Sequence record: NC_041871.1
Direction: 5' to 3' (one strand)
From: Escherichia phage Murica
Length of the DNA: 64,000 nucleotides
In this document: piece by piece, positions 2,882 to 34,587 of the stretch
Position numbering within the stretch: the first letter of the stretch is position 1
How the letters are laid out: every line of letters begins with the position of its first letter
Translations under genes and position numbers: made by a program
Notes under the pieces: model-generated
Databases searched by the model: none
Told to the model about the DNA's origin: nothing
What the model saw: only the letters and a program-made list of their open reading frames with translations

Positions 2882-3438
2882 GAAAGAAAGCTGTCAAAGC
2901 CCCAGTTCATAACGGGTGGTTAAAAGATTCTAAGGACATAGCCAACTTTCGAAAAGAATTGTCAGAGGAGCAGGATGGTCTTGATCCGATCTTGTGCGAG
3001 CCACTTCGTAAGCCTTGTTTAGATCATGATCATCTGACTGGTCGTTGCAGGGGTGTTTTGTCTCAATGCACTAATACCTTTGAGGGGTATGTGCTTAAAT
3101 ACTGGATGAAATACTGTAACGAGTATACAGATTGCAGTTTATCAGAGGCGTTGCGCCGGATGGCTGACTATTTGGAGAAAGACTACAGCGACTTCCCACT
3201 CCACAAAAACTACAGAGATGATATGACAAAGTTCTTGAGGAGATGCTCTAAAGCTACGATTATTGCACGAGCAGAATCAGATCTCAATCTTGTCATTAAT
3301 CCGGAGTGCACCAAGCATGAGGCTATTGAGTTCTACATGCAGGAGTTTATAAAGAAAACTGAGGAGAGAGATTTCTATGGGGATGAAAAAGGTATTCAAT
3401 CCTTGCGACTCAGTCCTGATCAGGATGAAATACCGTAA
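2833..3438 (+). CDS. endonuclease VII family protein
   Basis: CLDHDHLTGRCRGVLSQCTNTFEG matches T4 endo VII LDHDH..GKVRGLLCNLCN core; start uncertain (TTG inside upstream gene). Confidence 0.7.
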   Translation: MDRQGSSGGIIAKRKIRKKAVKAPVHNGWLKDSKDIANFRKELSEEQDGLDPILCEPLRKPCLDHDHLTGRCRGVLSQCTNTFEGYVLKYWMKYCNEYTDCSLSEALRRMADYLEKDYSDFPLHKNYRDDMTKFLRRCSKATIIARAESDLNLVINPECTKHEAIEFYMQEFIKKTEERDFYGDEKGIQSLRLSPDQDEIP

Positions 3439-4639: not shown

Positions 4640-5458
4640 TTGAGCAAGAAAGAGTCCAACGACAAATATTACACAAACCCTAAGTATGCAGAATATCTTG
4701 TTGGTAAAGTAAAAGACAAGTATGGGAATTGTGCATACGTTGAGCCTTCTGCTGGAAGGGGTTCTTTTTCAAAACTATTTTCAGAGATACTGTCGTACGA
4801 TCTAGTACCAGATCCTGAATTTGAAGGACCAACACAGTGCATTCAGGCAAACTTCTTGGAGGTGCATCCTAAGGCAGATGTCTTCATAGGTAACCCACCA
4901 TTTGGCAAGAATTCATCTTTAGCTTGCAAATTCTTTAACCATTGTGCATCATTGCTAGAGCTTGGCGGGGCTATAGCCTTCATCTTGCCACGGACATTTG
5001 AAAAAATATTTTTTGCAAACAAACTGGACATGTCTATGCACCTTGTCTACAGCGAAAGGTGCCCTAAGAACTCGTTTTTACTTAATGGCAAACCTTACGA
5101 CGTGCCATGTGTTTTCCAAATTTGGGAGAAAAAGGCGTGCAATAGGGATCCTGTAGAGATTGGAGAGAATAAGTTATTTTCTTTTAGCACACCGGATGAC
5201 TACGACTTCTGTGTAAGACGTGTTGGGTATAACGCTGGAAAAGTATTGGGTGATGATGATCCAAAATCTGAAGAATCTACGTATTTCATAAAATCTTTAG
5301 TTGACGGTGTTGACAGAGTGTTTGCTGAATGCTATTCTTCTTTTCAAGAAGAAGCAGGTAAGACTGCTGGAATGAAGAGTATAGGCAAGAAAGAACTACA
5401 ATACATTTTGGAGACCTGGTATGATCAAAAGCATAGACTTGACAAAAGAACTTACTGA
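4640..5458 (+). CDS. DNA N6-adenine methyltransferase (TaqI-like motif order)
   Basis: Motif I VEPSAGRGSF then motif IV FIGNPPFGK; TTG start 4 nt after GGAGG (track start 4610 lies inside the terminator). Confidence 0.6.
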   Translation: MSKKESNDKYYTNPKYAEYLVGKVKDKYGNCAYVEPSAGRGSFSKLFSEILSYDLVPDPEFEGPTQCIQANFLEVHPKADVFIGNPPFGKNSSLACKFFNHCASLLELGGAIAFILPRTFEKIFFANKLDMSMHLVYSERCPKNSFLLNGKPYDVPCVFQIWEKKACNRDPVEIGENKLFSFSTPDDYDFCVRRVGYNAGKVLGDDDPKSEESTYFIKSLVDGVDRVFAECYSSFQEEAGKTAGMKSIGKKELQYILETWYDQKHRLDKRTY

Positions 5459-5879
5459 TGCAAAAGCTTTTGGTGAGACAGCGGTACAAAGAGGCCAGGC
5501 GATGGGACTGGCACTACCTTTCGTCTTAAAAGAGCACTTTACAGATTTTCAACTTATCAAAGGTGATAAGGGAATGCTTATCCTGGAGCATAAGTTGAGT
5601 AAGAAACGCTACAAAGTTGTTTTTAATTCTAAAGCCCCAACAAAACTTGGATTCAGAACTTACAATCTCAACCCATCCTATACTAAGGGTGTTGGAAGGG
5701 TAGAACAACAGCATTTCAGCGCTAGAGCTTCTTTAGCTCCTTTGATGCTAAATTTCTCAGGGGTGGCTTTAGGATACCTTGATAAGAAAAGAGTTCTTCA
5801 TGTCCGTTTCACAGACTTTGTAACGCTTTTAGCTAACAACGAAGTTGATGAAAAGGGACGTGTAAAAACAAACTTCTAA
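5421..5879 (+). CDS. hypothetical protein
   Basis: ATG 5421 after GGAGACC; 152 codons. Confidence 0.45.
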   Translation: MIKSIDLTKELTDAKAFGETAVQRGQAMGLALPFVLKEHFTDFQLIKGDKGMLILEHKLSKKRYKVVFNSKAPTKLGFRTYNLNPSYTKGVGRVEQQHFSARASLAPLMLNFSGVALGYLDKKRVLHVRFTDFVTLLANNEVDEKGRVKTNF

Positions 5880-5906
5880 TAACGCATAGTATGATTGGAG
5901 ACTACA

Positions 5907-6098
5907 ATGACACTAAAGTTAACAATTCCAGACAGCTTTTCAGAAAACTTTATCCCAGAAATGATGGGTAAGATGCGATCATTGCTTGATCAGATTGAGG
6001 AAGCTGTTTGGGAAGACGATGCTGTAGTGGCTAACGAGCTAGTAGATAAGTGTAAAAGTATTATTGATGCAGTTGAAGAATACCACGGAGGTTTTTGA
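5907..6098 (+). CDS. hypothetical protein
   Basis: ATG 5907 six nt after GGAG. Confidence 0.4.
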   Translation: MTLKLTIPDSFSENFIPEMMGKMRSLLDQIEEAVWEDDAVVANELVDKCKSIIDAVEEYHGGF

Positions 6099-6712
6099 TG
6101 GATATTATTGTTCTTAACGCCCCACCCAGCAGTGGTAAGGATCACATTGCAGATCTCTTGTTGGAAGCTATTCCTAACTCACACCACCGTGAGGTTAAGG
6201 AGATGCTCTTCAGTGTGGCAATTAAGGCAGCTGGTGTAACTCCTCAACTCTGGAATGCACTTTATGACCGCCACTACAAAGAAGATCCTTGCCCTTTCTT
6301 AATGATAGACGGCAAGCATGTTTCTCCGCGAGAGTGGATGATCCATTGTAGTGAAAATCTGATTAAACCTATCTTTGGTGAAGATGCTTTCGGTAAGGCC
6401 GCAGTCACATCCTTGAAGAAAGATTTCCCTAAAGGTAAAGGGGTTGTTGTTTACTCCGATGGTGGATTCAAAGAGGAGCTGGCATGCCTTAGTGAGTACG
6501 CATACAGCACAGGTGGAGATCTGTTGTTGTTCCGTATTCACCGTGTAGGATATGACTGGGGAAATGATTCCAGAACCTATCTAAGTCTGGAAAAGAACGG
6601 AATAAAAGGGGTTGAGTTTGATGTTGTAAACCCTGAAGGTGCACCTTGGGAGTGTGCATCGGAGATTGTGTGCAAGTATATTGATGCTAAAGAGGCCCAA
6701 GAAGAATGTTAA
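6098..6712 (+). CDS. deoxynucleoside monophosphate kinase (T4 gp1-like)
   Basis: LNAPPSSGKDHIAD aligns with T4 dNMP kinase LSGVKRSGKDTTAD; GGAGG SD. Confidence 0.65.
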   Translation: MDIIVLNAPPSSGKDHIADLLLEAIPNSHHREVKEMLFSVAIKAAGVTPQLWNALYDRHYKEDPCPFLMIDGKHVSPREWMIHCSENLIKPIFGEDAFGKAAVTSLKKDFPKGKGVVVYSDGGFKEELACLSEYAYSTGGDLLLFRIHRVGYDWGNDSRTYLSLEKNGIKGVEFDVVNPEGAPWECASEIVCKYIDAKEAQEEC

Positions 6713-7299
6713 TCGGAATTGATGTAGATCTGACACTGGTAGATTCAGGAACAGCATGGTGGGAGTGGTTGGAGCGTTTGTATGGTCCAGCCAGTAAGAC
6801 AGTAGCTAAACCTTCTAATGGGCTAATGTATTACGATCTGTCAAAGTATTGGCCTGATCGTCCCAAAGAAAACATCATAGGACCTTTTGATTTCTGGAGT
6901 GATCCGTTCCTCTACGACTTCCTTAAGCCTGAAGAGGGGGCTATTGAGGTTATGAAAGATTTGGTGGCTCGTGGTCACAAGCTTGCATTTATCTCGGTAT
7001 GCAAGAAAGGTCACCTTGCATCTAAATCAAGGTTCTTAAAGCGTTGGACCAGTGATTTTATGGATCTGGACGATCACACCCAAGGCCACGGCTTCTACGC
7101 CACACATTTCAAAGGGAATGTGGCTGTAGATGTTATAATTGACGACAGGCATGAATACCTGAACCAATTCGCTTCACGACCTGAAGTTATTAAAATCCTA
7201 AAAGATACACCTTATGAGCAATTCGAGGAGTTAAAGGTCAGTGTTGACTATACCGCTAATAGCTGGTATAAAATAGGAAAATTTTTAGAAGGTATTTGA
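6706..7299 (+). CDS. HAD-superfamily phosphatase, putative deoxyribonucleotidase
   Basis: N-terminal DxDxT motif (GIDVDLTLVD); sits in nucleotide-salvage cluster. Confidence 0.5.
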   Translation: MLIGIDVDLTLVDSGTAWWEWLERLYGPASKTVAKPSNGLMYYDLSKYWPDRPKENIIGPFDFWSDPFLYDFLKPEEGAIEVMKDLVARGHKLAFISVCKKGHLASKSRFLKRWTSDFMDLDDHTQGHGFYATHFKGNVAVDVIIDDRHEYLNQFASRPEVIKILKDTPYEQFEELKVSVDYTANSWYKIGKFLEGI

Positions 7300-7300
7300 A

Positions 7301-7501
7301 ATGGGCAGATGTTCTAAAGGTGGCGATCCTGTAGTCAGATACGGTGACTGGCTAGAGGTGTATGATCTAGGAGGTAAGCTAGTGTATGCCTCCAGGATCA
7401 CCCAAGACATGTGCTCCGATATGTTCAACAGATACCTTGCATTTAAGGCCAACATAAACCCAGACGAAATTTCCAAAATTAAAACAAGGAGAGCTAAATA
7501 A
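7301..7501 (+). CDS. hypothetical protein
   Basis: 66-codon ORF with purine-rich SD. Confidence 0.4.
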   Translation: MGRCSKGGDPVVRYGDWLEVYDLGGKLVYASRITQDMCSDMFNRYLAFKANINPDEISKIKTRRAK

Positions 7502-30326: not shown

Positions 30327-30535
30327 TCAACACACATGCACCTGAAGAGACATCCAAAGGAGTGACCATATGTCCCTTGGCTGAGCCAGTTAGAGAGGAA
30401 AACTTAGATTCTGAGGACTCTTCATCTTCGTCCCAGACAGATCCTGAGGCTGATGACCTGACGTGGGAGGACATCGTAGATATCTGGTTCTCTATTATGC
30501 CTGAGCACGAAGAGTTCAGAGGTGGTAGACTATGA
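30323..30535 (+). CDS. hypothetical highly acidic protein
   Basis: Ser/Asp/Glu-rich (DSEDSSSSSQTDPEADD); GGGTGG SD. Confidence 0.45.
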   Translation: MINTHAPEETSKGVTICPLAEPVREENLDSEDSSSSSQTDPEADDLTWEDIVDIWFSIMPEHEEFRGGRL

Positions 30536-30655
30536 AGCACCGAGCCCACACAGGTTCCTCATGCTAAAGCATGGCCTGAAGAGGCAAACGTGTATAATTC
30601 CTGTGCATTGTGACGTATAAAACCCGTTCACACTCTCATTTCCAGAGGAGATTTT

Positions 30656-30871
30656 ATGAAGATAGAAATATTTGGTGGAGCTGACAACACTCGTGGCCTG
30701 ATTTACCTGGAATTCGATGAATCATACCTGCCAGAGGTGTTAAATATAGACTCTGTTGCTGAGGCTTTGGGAGTAAACCCTAAAGAACTCCACTCTTGTG
30801 CTGAGATCGATGGTTGGGAAGAGACCATGAACATTGATTTCAGTGAAGTAGAGGATGAACCGCTGGACTGA
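30656..30871 (+). CDS. small acidic protein
   Basis: MKIEIFGG...; GAGGAG SD; last + strand gene before the noncoding region. Confidence 0.5.
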   Translation: MKIEIFGGADNTRGLIYLEFDESYLPEVLNIDSVAEALGVNPKELHSCAEIDGWEETMNIDFSEVEDEPLD

Positions 30872-30962
30872 CACACAATTAGCTGCCCGGCTAAAGTGCT
30901 GGAGCACCTACAATACATCTTTCAACTAAATTTCCCACCACCACAATCACTTACCTTCCACA

Positions 30963-31025
30963 CATGACTGTTTGCTTGTTTAGTGAGCAGTCATGCCTTG
31001 ACATTCTTGCCTATCCTGATAAAAT
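30963..31025 (+). promoter_or_regulatory. sigma70-like promoter with upstream inverted repeat, firing into ORF-free region
   Basis: CATGACTG (30963-30970) / CAGTCATG (30988-30995); TTGACA (30998-31003), 16 nt, TAAAAT (31020-31025). Confidence 0.45.
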
Positions 31026-32349
31026 TAAGTTCTTCTCTTTTCTTTTACCGAGTAATTCGGGTTTTCTGTTCTCTTCGGTTTGAAGGGGTATGGAGATACA
31101 CCTGAGTGAACATGGTGAACAACCGAACATTTGGCTATGGCATTAGCATGGCGAAGCGGACGGGTGACGAAAGAGGGGCCGGAGGACACCAGTCACTGCC
31201 ATATGATATATGGGTGATAACCTGAAGAGTCTGAATAAGTGTTTAAGTACCAGTCAGAGGAAAAGGTGAATGGTAGCCGAAGGGGGAGGGGGGTTTCTTG
31301 TATCTTTAATTTGTATATTATGTATACACTCGTAAACCAATCTCATCTGAATCTGTTTACCACACAAAGTAGATAGGGACAAATATCACCTATTAAACTT
31401 GAATTATTTATAGAAAATACCACAACACCACTTAAGTCTTTGATTTTACACACAAATCCTACAGATATTCAACCTCTATATTTAACATATTCATAACATA
31501 TTCCATACTCTACCTGTCTGATCAATTTACCCAACCACATCCTCCATATTTTCCCTGTCTGTACCACCCCTGCCCCGCCGGGAGTCCCGTCATATCTGGC
31601 TTTCCAGCAAATATCACACCCACAAATATCATTGCCTGAAGAGGGTTTCATCCCATAGTACATGCCTTACCTGAAGAGCGCTTCATACACCACGTAAATT
31701 TTTTAATTTACCCCCCCTCCCCGCCGCCGGAGTGGTCGGCTTTTCCCACACAGGCCTGAAGAGTCAGCCAGAAATATCTGAACAGGTCCAGTTATACCAC
31801 GATTTTGACCTGACCGACAGGAGTGCTGCCAGGCGGACGGAATGGGAATACTTCTCATTCTTATAATAATTCTCAAATATCGAGGCAGTGAGGCAAATTA
31901 ATAGGTGAGGCCGTTCACACAGTGGCACAACATTTGCAATCTATTTTGTGAGGGTGAATGAGAATACCTATCATTGTGAGAACTGTTATCATTACGGGCA
32001 ATTTAACATAATACCCATTATGCGCACCACTGGCGATCCATACAGGGATTGATAACATGAGTTACAGTTTACGCATATAACAATCATATTTCTTACTATT
32101 TGTGTGGGATATAGTTAGCAGCCGATAGATTAGATATTGACCTGTGGACTTCCAACCGTCTAGACGTCTAAACGCCCACACAACAAGGATTATACATACA
32201 TTACTGAATGTAAACAGGGCCGCAAAAATGCTACCATACCAGATTGTAAATTTTTCATGCAGCACTTGACAAAGAGGAGAAAAACTTGTCTGACACAATA
32301 TGACATACTGGGCACATTAAACACACTTTAGACTTAATTGACATGCCTG

Positions 32350-32469
32350 ACTGTTTACGCTGTCACTATTCACGCTATTACTATTCACTCCCTTTACTGT
32401 TCACGCTCTTACTGTTTACATGCTTAATGGTTTACATGACCAATAGTTTACATAGCTAACTATTTACAT
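32350..32469. repeat. iteron array: 8 direct 11-bp repeats at 15-16 bp period
   Basis: actgtttacgc, actattcacgc, actattcactc, actgttcacgc, actgtttacat, atggtttacat, atagtttacat, actatttacat starting at about 32350, 32365, 32380, 32396, 32411, 32427, 32443, 32459. Confidence 0.8.
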
Positions 32470-32481
32470 GGAAATGATAAG

Positions 32482-32762
32482 CCATGCCATTCGTTTGCAT
32501 GATAACTATTAGCAAGTTAATAATCTTTCGCTGGCTATGCCAGGTGACCTTTGGTCACCCCTTCGGGTGTTTCTATGACATAATATAAAAGCAGGGCAAC
32601 TATTAGAAGATCTATAGTTGCCTTGCTTGTTATGTCATGATTAACTAAATACAAGGCAACTATGATCTGATTAATAGTTTGCAAACAAACTATCACGGGG
32701 GGTGATGGTTACTGCTTTTATATTATGTCGCGACTCCGTCGCGCCATGCCATTCGTTTGCAT
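32482..32762. repeat. nested direct/inverted repeat complex
   Basis: 19-bp direct repeat CCATGCCATTCGTTTGCAT (32482 and 32744); 18-bp inverted repeat TGACATAATATAAAAGCAG (32576) / CTGCTTTTATATTATGTC (32712); palindromes GGTGACC-ttt-GGTCACC (32543-32559) and GGCAACTAT-N10-ATAGTTGCC (32595-32622). Confidence 0.75.
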
Positions 32763-33388
32763 AGTTGCCTTATTGTTACAGATAAAATAATTGTATTGTT
32801 AATTATTTCTTATCTTTCTCTTAGTCATCTAATGATTCCAGTCAGTATAGTAATGTACAGTAAACATTAGACGACTAAAGATTTATATGCTTATAATAAC
32901 TTACAGTGACAATTTCGGACTGTTTACGAAAAATGTTGACACCTGAGCCGATTTATGTTATGCAGTTTACACGAATAATTATTTTATGCAGGTATTGACT
33001 ATTCCGTTATTCTATGGTCGGAATAAATACTTAGCAGTCTATAGAATGGTGACGCTACGTGAATTCTGGAATTTAGTGGCTATAGTTATACCCGATTTTT
33101 CACGTAGAACACGCTTTTGTGGTTATGTAAGTGTATGACTTATAAAGATTTTTAGTTGTTGACAAGACACTGAAGATATGCATCAGGTTAAATTTTGTGC
33201 AATAGCTGCATTACGTGCAATTTTGGAAGGAAAAACGTGTAAAAATGGCCCTGCTACCACACAATGAAAGATTATGCAATAGCTATTTTATATGTATGTT
33301 TGTACAGTGTGTGGGATTGATGGCTAGTCAATTATTCCACTTGCCAGGTGGGGACGTTTGTGGTAGGAGAAATACAGACAAAAAGAAA

Positions 33389-33406
33389 GGGGCCTTTTAA
33401 AGCCCC
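33389..33406 (-). terminator. terminator closing the - strand arm
   Basis: GGGGC-cttttaaa-GCCCC with U-tract on - strand (complement of AAAAGAAA 33381-33388). Confidence 0.5.
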
Positions 33407-33425
33407 TGATAGTTTAGTTAAGAAA

Positions 33426-33845
33426 TTATAATGATTCGTATATTTCATAGATTCGATTTGCCAGGTCGTTACGGTAGCGGAATTTTTCCTCACGTTTGAT
33501 CATCAGATCTTTAAAGCCATATTCTTTAAGCACTTCATTAACTTTATGGCGGCATACCTTCATATTATCCTGTGCGTCACCAATAAACTTGTTGCTATGG
33601 TGCATGGCTTTAATTTCTTCTTCCAGGACCAGGGCAACTATGCGGACCGGATCAAGCTGATAGGCGGTAACATCAATGCGGCATTGTAAACGGCTTTTTA
33701 CGTCTGCCACCGGATATACTGCAACCTCTTCCCCGTCAACATTGACAATAATTAGTTTACCATCGATTTCGAATCCTTTCGCCGCCGGACCGTGACAAAA
33801 AGCGTTATCAAAGCTATATGCCGGATTATTAGATTTAATGTTCAT
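33426..33845 (-). CDS. hypothetical protein
   Basis: ATG with AAGAGGT SD; 139 codons. Confidence 0.5.
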   Translation of the reverse strand: MNIKSNNPAYSFDNAFCHGPAAKGFEIDGKLIIVNVDGEEVAVYPVADVKSRLQCRIDVTAYQLDPVRIVALVLEEEIKAMHHSNKFIGDAQDNMKVCRHKVNEVLKEYGFKDLMIKREEKFRYRNDLANRIYEIYESL

Positions 33846-33894
33846 GGTGTTTTTACCTCTTAGTTAATTTTCTTACAACTTCCCTTCAAAAAAG

Positions 33895-33923
33895 AATATA
33901 GCAAAACTGCCGATCCTTGTCAA
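33895..33923 (-). promoter_or_regulatory. sigma70-like promoter (- strand)
   Basis: On - strand TTGACA (33918-33923), 17 nt, TATATT (33895-33900); -35 sits in palindrome CCTTG-gttga-CAAGG. Confidence 0.45.
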
Positions 33924-33990
33924 CCAAGGATAGCATAATTTTTATGTGATCAAGGGGCTTTATTGCCCCCTGATCGTGCAACTTGTTGTA

Positions 33991-34254
33991 TTATTTGTTA
34001 CTCATCCAGTTTTCCCAGGCTGCCTGATAATCTGCCTCACTGCGGCGGATCTCTTCTTGCTCTTCAAGTCGGATCTCTTCTTCCAGGTACCCCAAGATAT
34101 CGGCTTTCTTGGTCTGGCGTAACATCCAATCATCTTTTTTACGGGTAAAGATCTTATATGCTTTCTCGCAAACCTCTTTTTTGCTACCTTTTTGGACTTC
34201 AAGAACTTTGTAGGCCATGTACTGAACTAGTTTAAGCTGATCAAGACGTTTCAT
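33991..34254 (-). CDS. hypothetical charged protein
   Basis: SD AAAGAGGT; 87 codons. Confidence 0.5.
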   Translation of the reverse strand: MKRLDQLKLVQYMAYKVLEVQKGSKKEVCEKAYKIFTRKKDDWMLRQTKKADILGYLEEEIRLEEQEEIRRSEADYQAAWENWMSNK

Positions 34255-34314
34255 GATGTTTACCTCTTTGTGTGGTTCTGATTAGTGGGCCTCCCGGCCC
34301 GTGTCATTATCTTA

Positions 34315-34587
34315 TTACTTACGGCGGCAGAATTCAAGCGTTTTTAATTGATAATCTTCCTCAGCCTGGAGTACAACCGCCTCGATCATTTCGTTGGCAT
34401 TGTTGAAGCCATACCCTTTAGCGAACTCGTCCGCACCACCTTCGTGATCATGTTCTGCGTTCATCGCTTCCACAAAATGGAATTCCAAATTGTTGAGGTA
34501 GGGGCTTGATGTGCCGTCTTCTTTTTCGATGAGATCCCAAATAGCATTAAAACGTGATTCGACTTCTTGATTAATCCAGCTTGACAT
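34315..34587 (-). CDS. hypothetical acidic protein
   Basis: SD AGAAGAGAGGAAA; 90 codons. Confidence 0.5.
   Translation of the reverse strand: MSSWINQEVESRFNAIWDLIEKEDGTSSPYLNNLEFHFVEAMNAEHDHEGGADEFAKGYGFNNANEMIEAVVLQAEEDYQLKTLEFCRRK

Follow-up and report, generated by a model that had tools for sequence, protein, structure and literature searches.

A conserved, covarying palindromic element beside the terminal repeat of Escherichia phage Murica and its relatives

Described terminal elements and the Murica locus

In phage T7, packaging requires cis sequences at the concatemer junction, and the mechanism by which direct terminal repeats (DTRs) are generated is acknowledged to be poorly understood. 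Arrays of short repeats reportedly abut the T7 terminal repeat, and a hairpin intermediate is said to have been proposed in the processing of its concatemers. Here we analyse a stretch of 64,000 nucleotides from Escherichia phage Murica (NC_041871.1; hereafter the window, to whose first letter all positions refer), in which an earlier note had marked a nested repeat complex at 32482-32762 as a possible nucleoprotein assembly point, such as origin auxiliary sites, a resolution site or a packaging signal. The source phage is rV5-like and belongs to the genus Vequintavirus, and 118 related records match it. We judge the element formed by these repeats to be kin to the known terminal cis elements of DTR phages: it lies beside a DTR and its structure is conserved, and a set of iterons adjoins it on the outside. 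No paper describing the element was found. We tentatively propose, at rather less than even confidence and from comparison of sequences, that it serves as a cis-acting folded signal of the left end in chromosome-end metabolism, that is, in packaging and/or end processing.

The locus shares short exact DTRs and fixed ends (458 bp here) with the T7 and T3 concatemer junctions, but it belongs to an unrelated 137-kb myovirus without a phage RNA polymerase, which rules out the coupling of terminase to RNA polymerase pausing known from T7. Here, moreover, the element is a multi-hairpin of 150-230 nt with a closing stem of 16-21 bp on the left-end side of the junction, and whereas the cis sequences beside the T7 repeat are needed for packaging, the corresponding role is deduced from sequence in our case. 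The packaging RNA (pRNA) of phage phi29 offers another parallel, being likewise a structured module (120-230 nt) that a linear genome encodes near its left end. In that RNA a helix closes the 5' and 3' ends around a multi-way junction with two hairpins, and the structure is kept by covariation as the sequence diverges, as we observe for the element. Unlike phi29, the Vequintavirinae lack a terminal protein and use a terminase to package concatemers, and the element, whose transcript is hypothetical, has no Rfam match and a closing stem devoid of G-U pairs.

Three further systems resemble the locus in part. At RSF1010 oriV, iterons are followed by a large palindrome with strand-specific hairpins (ssi), a layout like that of the element; here, in contrast, the iterons are not conserved together with it, no primase or initiator is linked, and the position is subterminal, between converging transcription units. 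Like lambda cos (cosQ-cosN-cosB, with R sites and an IHF site), the element is a unique cis site by a chromosome end with short repeats in both orientations, but it has no IHF consensus, the ends are 458-bp repeats instead of 12-nt cohesive ends, and in sister genera it is the pairing and not the 9-mer that is kept. The attP(+) site of CTX-phi is an imperfect palindrome of ~150 nt that folds on one strand into an Xer substrate, and Murica has both a palindrome able to fold as a single strand and a dif-like XerCD site. Murica is, however, a lytic double-stranded DNA myovirus, and its closing stem rebuilds no XerC/XerD site; such a folded site was considered and rejected, as dif is matched within the element no better than background (10 mismatches at best), and the actual dif-like site is plain duplex DNA 550 bp away.

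Conservation and covariation of the element

The element is framed by a perfect 20-bp direct repeat (DR20) and closed by a perfect 18-bp inverted repeat (IR18), and it contains the recurring 9-mer GGCAACTAT (Table 1). Both DR20 copies are exact and lie 262 bp apart from start to start, with 0.01 chance matches expected even when three mismatches are allowed; the IR18 arms are 100% complementary at a distance of 117 nt, with 0.09 matches expected by chance. Exact copies of GGCAACTAT stand at 32595 (+), 32614 (-), 32655 (+) and 32761 (-), that is, four within 175 bp, compared with six on both strands of the whole window, and no other cluster occurs in the ~138-kb rV5 genome. The direct repeat, the inverted repeat and the four exact half-sites are far beyond chance. 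Besides, the interval 32577-32729 constitutes one nested palindrome; whether folded as RNA or as DNA, both of its strands reach a z of -9 to -10.

Within Vequintavirus, where 13-17 genomes were aligned, the block from the left IR18 arm through the right DR20 copy, together with the fifth half-site, is almost invariant. Nucleotide diversity (pi) is 0.027 in the core and 0.005 at the right junction, compared with 0.077-0.089 for the DTR, the neighbouring non-coding DNA and the nearest gene, and with about 0.5 for the repeat arrays and for the segment between the left DR20 copy and the left IR18 arm. The core (32575-32769) is the least variable DNA of the region and is under strong purifying selection; it was recovered in 116 of the 118 Vequintavirus records, always in the same orientation and collinear over arms and interior. 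Half-sites 1-3 and 5 are invariant and their spacers vary, and the fourth shows a T/A difference without compensating change. FV3 alone was seen to lack the element, its iterons being followed by a single DR20 (the right copy) and then by the downstream sequence, with a clean junction. A palindrome between direct repeats is a classic hotspot of deletion and template switching, and the retention of the core in the other records despite this deletion-prone layout points to selection.

As the core is nearly invariant, covariation could not be sought within Vequintavirus alone. Further relatives outside the genus were found by scanning viral contigs with a DNA junction pattern, TGTCGC-N7-9-TCGCGCCA, which spans the GC-rich spacer hairpin and whose block has a pi of 0.0045; a route through proteins was abandoned, since the flanking proteins are not common to KPP-1. 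The scan yielded eight more elements in viral contigs of ~98-148 kb, including those of Salmonella phage PVP-SE1, Escherichia phage Av-05 and the uncultured contig L069. The same skeleton is thus present, with no alignable sequence, in PVP-SE1, KPP-1, Av-05, A7_1/A73 and L069. A7_1 and A73 share synteny with the window and have essentially no alignable gap DNA; in them a 15-18-nt direct repeat (CCATACTCTGGCAAT) surrounds a perfect 16-bp inverted repeat (GACACTATAAAACGAG), the GC-rich spacer and junction (..TGTCGC..TCGCGCCA..) are homologous to those that follow the inverted repeat in the window, and, as in Vequintavirus, the right part is invariant and the left segment variable. KPP-1 carries the same junction and a perfect 21-bp inverted repeat, which begins 309 bp from the inner boundary of its mapped DTR, compared with 286 bp in the window.

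The arm sequence is specific to each lineage, and yet every arm is perfectly complementary to its own partner. Among the nine arm variants of the closing stem, 11 of 18 pairs are changed on both sides and none on one side only, and 98.8% of the cells are Watson-Crick, a percentage biased upward because loci were admitted only with a perfect inverted repeat 10 nt or longer; these values were matched by none of 500 shuffles and by no slid register. Inner helices behave likewise. The consensus fold of the KPP/PVP-SE1 group comprises the closing stem, a hairpin after the left arm, a nested 13-bp stem and a hairpin before the right arm. Hairpin C has compensatory analogues in KPP-type phages (ATGATAA/TTATCAT, ATGCGA/TCGCAT and ACGATA/TATCGT) and a counterpart in L069, where AATAACAC-GGGGG-TGTTATT stands for AACTATCAC-GGGGGG-GTGATGGTT of the window. 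A positional analogue of hairpin A follows the left arm in KPP-type phages (CGATCA..TGATCG, co-varying) and also in L069, and direct-repeat pairs of other sequence hold the same positions in L069 and A7_1/A73. The 9-mer GGCAACTAT itself is confined to Vequintavirus and absent from the homologous elements of other lineages. That unrelated palindromes with co-varying halves occupy the same positions argues for base-paired stems and against a fixed protein recognition sequence, and the conserved property therefore appears to be base pairing in a folded single strand, the dyads being mainly hairpin arms. The assembly point of symmetric sites suggested in the earlier note stands as a real, conserved, single-copy cis element, but its reading as mainly a set of sites for dimeric proteins is not supported, since the sister-genus palindromes co-vary as stems.

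In each of the 12 elements compared, which come from five lineages, the + strand has the more stable fold, by a mean of -9.8 kcal/mol (consensus fold, -77.8 kcal/mol on the + strand vs -68.0 on the -), because G-U/G-T appositions fall on the + strand. This bias argues for a strand-specific single-stranded form, and a conserved structure with compensatory changes suits single-stranded DNA (ssDNA) and RNA equally. The closing stem contains no G-U in 162 cells, and no conserved sigma-70 promoter lies directly upstream of the element across lineages, both of which lean towards a stem at the DNA level; the active form may thus be ssDNA. Leaning towards RNA is the motif TTGACW-N12-TAYG, which is enriched in the window (7 vs 0.64 expected) and could be an unconventional promoter. 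Four copies on the + strand point inward from the left end (32338-32359, 32936-32957, 32995-33016 and 33159-33180), and the KPP-1/PVP-SE1 group keeps TTGACA-N12-YATGCTCAA on both sides of the element (~2698-2725 and 3090-3115 in the KPP-1 locus, L057). A 12-bp spacing is too short for a standard sigma-70 promoter and recalls the activator-dependent middle-type promoters of T4. Rfam gave no credible match in 30500-34500 (E up to 1) or in five other lineages (E up to 0.1).

Table 1. Features of the element and of the adjoining terminal region in the Murica window
Feature	Position	Strand	Remarks
DTR, 458/459 bp	31832..32290		context, outside the element itself
dif-like XerC/XerD site, GGTGCGCATAA TGGGTA TTATGTTAAAT	32001..32028	-	inside the DTR, ~450-550 bp upstream of the element
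TGACAY-type repeats, ~10 bp	32291..32349	+	begin exactly at the inner DTR boundary; hypervariable copy number, pi ~0.47
Iteron array, ACTRTTYAC	32350..32471	+	8 units, 15/16-bp spacing
DR20-L, left 20-bp direct repeat, GCCATGCCATTCGTTTGCAT	32481..32500	+	
Hypervariable left segment	32501..32576	+	3 hairpins; length 48-113 nt across Vequintavirus, content unrelated, pi 0.52
Hairpin CTGGCtatGCCAG	32531-32543	+	not in the earlier note
Hairpin GGTGACCtttGGTCACC	32543-32559	+	
Hairpin CACCCcttcGGGTG	32556-32569	+	
IR18-L, GACATAATATAAAAGCAG	32577..32594	+	5' half of closing stem; invariant in 17 Vequintavirus sequences
Hairpin A (dyad 1), GGCAACTAT-N10-ATAGTTGCC	32589..32628	+	dyad at 32595-32622; stem extends to 15 bp, GATC in loop
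Hairpin B (dyad 2), GGCAACTAT-GATCTGATTA-ATAGTTtGC	32646..32683	+	imperfect
Hairpin C, AACTATCAC-GGGGGG-GTGATGGTT	32688..32710	+	directly 5' of IR18-R; G-T wobble on + strand only
IR18-R, CTGCTTTTATATTATGTC	32712..32729	+	3' half of closing stem
GC-rich spacer hairpin, GCGACTCCGTCGC	32730..32742	+	between IR18-R and DR20-R
DR20-R, right 20-bp direct repeat, GCCATGCCATTCGTTTGCAT	32743..32762	+	
Fifth half-site ATAGTTGCC (32761-32769) and flank	32760..32778	+	84% complementary over 19 nt to 32646-32664

All of the features described in the earlier note are present, with the direct repeat one base pair longer than the 19 bp given there and the inverted-repeat arms close to the reported distance of about 115 bp; the dyad and the eight neighbouring iterons are as stated. 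As to the recurrence of the half-site, the copies at 32655 and 32761 are exact, but the one near 32677 is imperfect (ATAGTTTGC, 32674-32682, with one extra T). The two GC hairpins of the note exist as well, but they share 4 nt, so that they are mutually exclusive, and they belong to the hypervariable segment, are absent from most relatives (being confined to the window and to the rV5 and C2 types), and lie in a stretch that folds no better than its shuffles (z = -0.5). Hairpins at 32531-32543, 32688-32710 and 32730-32742 had been missed, as had the single nested palindrome. The repeats proved to be conserved in related genomes. Hairpin B can alternatively pair, in nested fashion, with hairpin A or with 32760-32778, which is a possible alternative partner of 32646-32664.

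Several smaller observations concern the repeats. The TGACAY(A/T)(A/T)T unit is matched by the outer 9 nt of the left IR18 arm (TGACATAAT, 32576-32584), with weak statistics (9 motifs per window vs ~4 expected). Iteron copy number differs between phages, the array being absent in V18 and not recognisable in KPP-1. The idea that the dyad half-sites and DR20 are diverged iterons was dropped, as the iteron weight matrix does not score them, and so was an operator regulon, no clusters of the 9-mer or of iterons occurring elsewhere in the ~138-kb genome. A GC-rich mini-insert of ~30 bp (..CCTCGAGACGAAGGCTATGCCTGAG..) follows dyad 1 in rV5-type phages (L001 4837-4869 and ~10 other records), and a similar one stands directly after the left DR20 copy in YP-6 (L010 ~1915-1960); it has the look of a very small insert that is mobile or copied from a template. 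In A73 (L056, reverse-complement 1160-1320 of 5101-7400) a third copy of the direct repeat lies within a 55-nt duplication whose copies are 48 nt apart, exactly where the gene numbering of the record wraps from 264 to 1, and the duplication could be real or an assembly overlap. An unrelated 58-kb viral contig (L043, IMGVR_UViG_3300037721_000035) was rejected as a relative, the shared GGCAACTAT being judged coincidental. Its interval 4780-5180 holds six exact copies of GGCAACTAT, GGTTGCC/GGCAACC repeats and a long AT-only stretch between an 861-aa primase-helicase-like open reading frame (ORF) and a SNF2-type helicase, and it is probably the origin of that phage.

Chromosome ends and a dif-like site

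The element is placed in a gap of ~2.6 kb without genes, where two gene blocks converge. In the rV5 genome paper this gap is merely a 'non-coding' box, and the authors expected bidirectional terminators between genes 163 and 164 and found none. The box is the physical terminus of the chromosome. In the records of HdK5, YN3 and Gotham, an identical sequence of 458/459 bp stands at both ends and maps exactly to 31832-32290, and the first base of the bov10K2 record is the nucleotide at which the DTR starts; the DTRs of these records differ from one another by 4-6%, indicating that they were determined independently. Korf et al. (PMC6563267) reported 458-bp terminal redundancies in the vequintaviruses EdH4 and HdK5 from abrupt read stops, and Dias et al. 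(PMC7471380) described Gotham with 459-bp terminal repeats and one packaging start for all virions. For Klebsiella phage KPP-1 (Mydovirus), coverage and PhageTerm had located a DTR of 514 bp, classed as 'T7-type', and both of its boundary sequences are homologous to the two DTR boundaries of the window. The advice of the earlier note to compare the repeats with terminal or pac regions was well placed: the element lies 190-470 bp inward of the left DTR of a chromosome with fixed ends of the T7 type. In virion coordinates the order is DTR, TGACAY repeats, iterons, left DR20 copy, variable segment, palindromic core, GC hairpin and right DR20 copy. Many GenBank records of Vequintavirus are not oriented to the DTR ends.

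A dif-like XerC/XerD site, found by a control scan for dif, lies within the DTR. It agrees with E. coli dif (sequence checked in PMC3025954) at 26 of 28 positions, with both the XerC and the XerD arm identical; nothing else in the window comes closer than 10 mismatches. All 17 Vequintavirus loci examined carry the site unchanged, and it is kept in four other lineages, A7_1/A73, the KPP-1 type, Av-05 and PVP-SE1 (L055/L056, L057, L061 and L071), with a constant XerD arm and a central hexamer that differs by lineage. The KPP-1 copy lies within the mapped DTR (L057 2230-2257), and in A7_1/A73 the site is the sole stretch of nucleotide similarity to the window. Thus the 'resolution site' suggested in the earlier note is not to be found at 32482-32762, but a true dif-like site stands upstream of it. 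No paper in the literature library that was searched connects Xer with these phages. Judging from its sequence, host XerCD could recombine the terminal repeats and so circularise the incoming genome, or could resolve multimers, in a lytic myovirus, and the site is perhaps more remarkable than the repeat complex that was originally noticed.

The unique DNA of the right end, immediately to the left of the DTR, contains repeats of its own, namely the C-rich CCACCCCTGCCCC and ACCCCCCCTCCCC at 31564-31581 and 31710-31727, the complements of which contain GGGNAGGG, the FtsK KOPS consensus. Three copies of GCCTGAAGAG lie there as well (31634, 31669 and 31754), and the sequence also occurs in A7_1 and A73. 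An 87-aa protein (33991-34254, -) is named 'DNA translocase FtsK' in some records (isim, nomine), but searches of Pfam and of PDB sequences revealed neither FtsK-gamma nor any other significant similarity. The name seems to be a propagated error, which is relevant in view of the nearby dif-like site. Among the ten flanking ORFs, searched against Pfam and PHROG, there was no initiator-like match, no usable DNA-binding protein and no adjacent recombinase gene.

Terminators follow the last gene on either side (31048-31060, +, and 33407-33388, -) and flank the DTR, and the region is the convergence point of transcription units, where cumulative GC skew peaks. The window is rich in GATC (357 vs 240 expected; 1.5x), yet the terminal gap 30900-33450 has few copies (4 vs ~14 expected), and two of the four gap copies sit in the loops of dyads 1 and 2 (32609 and 32664), a hint of Dam/GATC control that is only suggestive. 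Eighteen MG0656xx records labelled 'Campylobacter phage' (several UNVERIFIED, none annotated) are 90-97% identical here to E. coli Vequintavirus; probably their host labels are wrong or the sequences are contaminants.

Role of the element and competing explanations

In the role that we tentatively favour, the element would be the Vequintavirus version of a cis element common to the subfamily. One DNA strand, or its transcript, would fold into a multi-hairpin structure in which the 18-bp inverted repeat provides the closing stem and hairpins A, B and C the arms of a three- or four-way junction, the GC-rich spacer and the flanking 20-bp direct repeats completing the module. So folded, it may mark the left end for the terminase at the initiation or termination of packaging, and/or the displaced + strand may snap into a hairpin and help to regenerate the terminal repeat from concatemers. 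We lean to this role because the element is subterminal, near mapped ends in two lineages, unique in the genome, under selection, structured and co-varying, and broadly distributed, and because T7 provides a precedent.

A number of points weigh against it. Several groups reported that Vequintavirus genomes are circularly permuted, with headful packaging called by PhageTerm, which conflicts with fixed ends; we judge these reports less specific than the evidence for fixed ends, but the conflict remains. The distance between element and DTR is not constant, ranging from ~170 to 310 bp among phages, and a fixed spacing was dropped for this reason. The folding advantage of the + strand and the promoter-like motifs upstream fit RNA equally well, and 5'-3' resection of the left end would leave the - strand single and not the + strand. 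The choice of loci described above favours paired arms. Finally, FV3, which is a propagated phage, represents either a natural deletion, in which case the element is dispensable in the laboratory and not strictly essential, or a sequencing artefact.

Among the alternatives, a structured non-coding RNA gene of ~150-230 nt, running rightward (+) from the left end and acting in trans, for instance in regulation, as a decoy or, like the phi29 pRNA, as a cofactor of packaging, is rather unlikely, although it commands an appreciable minority of our confidence. Its closing helix would join the 5' and 3' ends. The better fold of the + strand in every element compared, the covariation of several helices, and the G-U pairs together with one A-U to G-U change in the inner helices, seen on the + strand only, all speak for it, as do the U-rich sequence after the module and the TTGACW-N12-TAYG motif upstream at 32338, kept ~170 nt upstream in the KPP/PVP-SE1 group; the phi29 pRNA is also encoded beside the left genome end. 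Neither the window nor the five other lineages gave an Rfam match, however, no conserved sigma-70 promoter lies directly upstream, in the hypervariable left segment, whose hairpins in the window resemble terminators, and no clear intrinsic terminator follows the element. A closing stem free of G-U is unusual for an RNA helix, and a perfect RNA duplex of 16-21 bp would be an RNase III substrate. That the element encodes a new structured RNA across the Vequintavirinae for packaging or end recognition, a counterpart of the phi29 pRNA in a terminase-using myovirus, we regard as a long shot. Part of a replication origin, as implied by the 'origin auxiliary sites' of the earlier note, is an unlikely but not negligible explanation: the iterons would bind an initiator on duplex DNA, and the folded + strand, as lagging-strand template of a rightward fork, would act as an ssi or primosome-assembly signal as at RSF1010 oriV. 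The eight iterons immediately to the left, a stretch of 73-83% AT at 32760-32820 after the module, the uniqueness of the element in the genome and, partly by inference, the better fold of the strand on which forks moving away from the iterons would make the lagging strand are in keeping with an origin. The idea is weakened by the fact that the iterons are not conserved with the element outside Vequintavirus (KPP-1 has no array) and are missing from V18, by the lack of DnaA and IHF consensus sequences in 31800-33430, and by the location at the convergence of transcription units and the maximum of GC skew, as well as by FV3. No initiator gene is adjacent, the only 'replication initiation protein' of rV5 (gp075) being ~40 kb away. 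That protein (rV5 65308-65658; L054 15308-15658) has a GntR-like N-terminus and is encoded beside a divergent promoter zone near 66 kb, which is a more conventional origin candidate than the subterminal iterons. A plasmid origin was discarded, as the sole matching plasmid record is a mis-filed phage genome.

Quite unlikely in our estimate is a duplex platform on which dimeric sequence-specific proteins (the small terminase subunit, a repressor or a partition-like protein) bind the GGCAACTAT dyads, the inverted-repeat arms and the direct repeats. The alternating copies of GGCAACTAT, including the fifth half-site outside the closing stem, exceed what a hairpin needs, four of the half-sites are invariant in spite of varying spacers, GATC occurs in both dyad spacers, and from lineage to lineage both direct repeats change together without being able to pair; the last point and the repeated identical 9-mer suggest that at least one protein reads the module. 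The homologous elements of other lineages, on the other hand, lack GGCAACTAT and have unrelated palindromes that co-vary as stems, the centres of the half-sites are separated by 19 bp, the fourth half-site is drifting, the nearby genes offer no candidate binding protein, and no regulon of such sites exists elsewhere in the genome. A bidirectional terminator or insulator that shields the terminal repeat from the converging units, with the inverted-repeat arms as U-tails of hairpin C (+) and hairpin A (-), is highly improbable. It would accord with the expectation of the rV5 authors, with a terminator-like call on the + strand at 32688-32710 and with a - strand terminator annotated over dyad 1 in the Alma record, but the last gene on each side already has a good terminator behind it, A7_1 and KPP-type elements have no hairpin beside the U-rich arm, and perfect covariation over 16-21 bp is unnecessary for U-tracts. 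Least probable of all, and already largely refuted, is a selfish insertion (MITE-like, an integrated mini-circle or an invertible segment) with a 20-bp target duplication and FV3 as the empty site. The perfect flanking repeats, the precise one-copy state of FV3, the internal inverted repeats and the hairpin-like mini-insert at different positions in rV5-type phages and YP-6 recall such an event, yet the inverted repeats lie inside, at 76 nt and 13 nt from the direct repeats, without a duplication on their flanks; there is one locus per genome and no adjacent recombinase gene, and the element is an ancient one, in synteny across genera and with direct repeats that co-vary. When 185,579 species genomes of bacteria and archaea were scanned for the dyad, 27 matches emerged, in unrelated taxa at about chance level and none of them enterobacterial, and the single orientation in all 116 records and in 17 inspected sequences speaks against an inverton.

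How DTR phages recognise, cut and regenerate their ends is poorly understood and known nearly only from T7 and T3. A compact folded element backed by covariation, next to the DTR, is common to a large, therapeutically used phage subfamily whose hosts include E. coli, Salmonella, Klebsiella and Cronobacter. The element and the dif site provide targets for mutation by which the circularisation, replication and packaging of DTR genomes may be approached, and, in practical terms, engineering, rebooting and correctly orienting these genomes depends on such elements.

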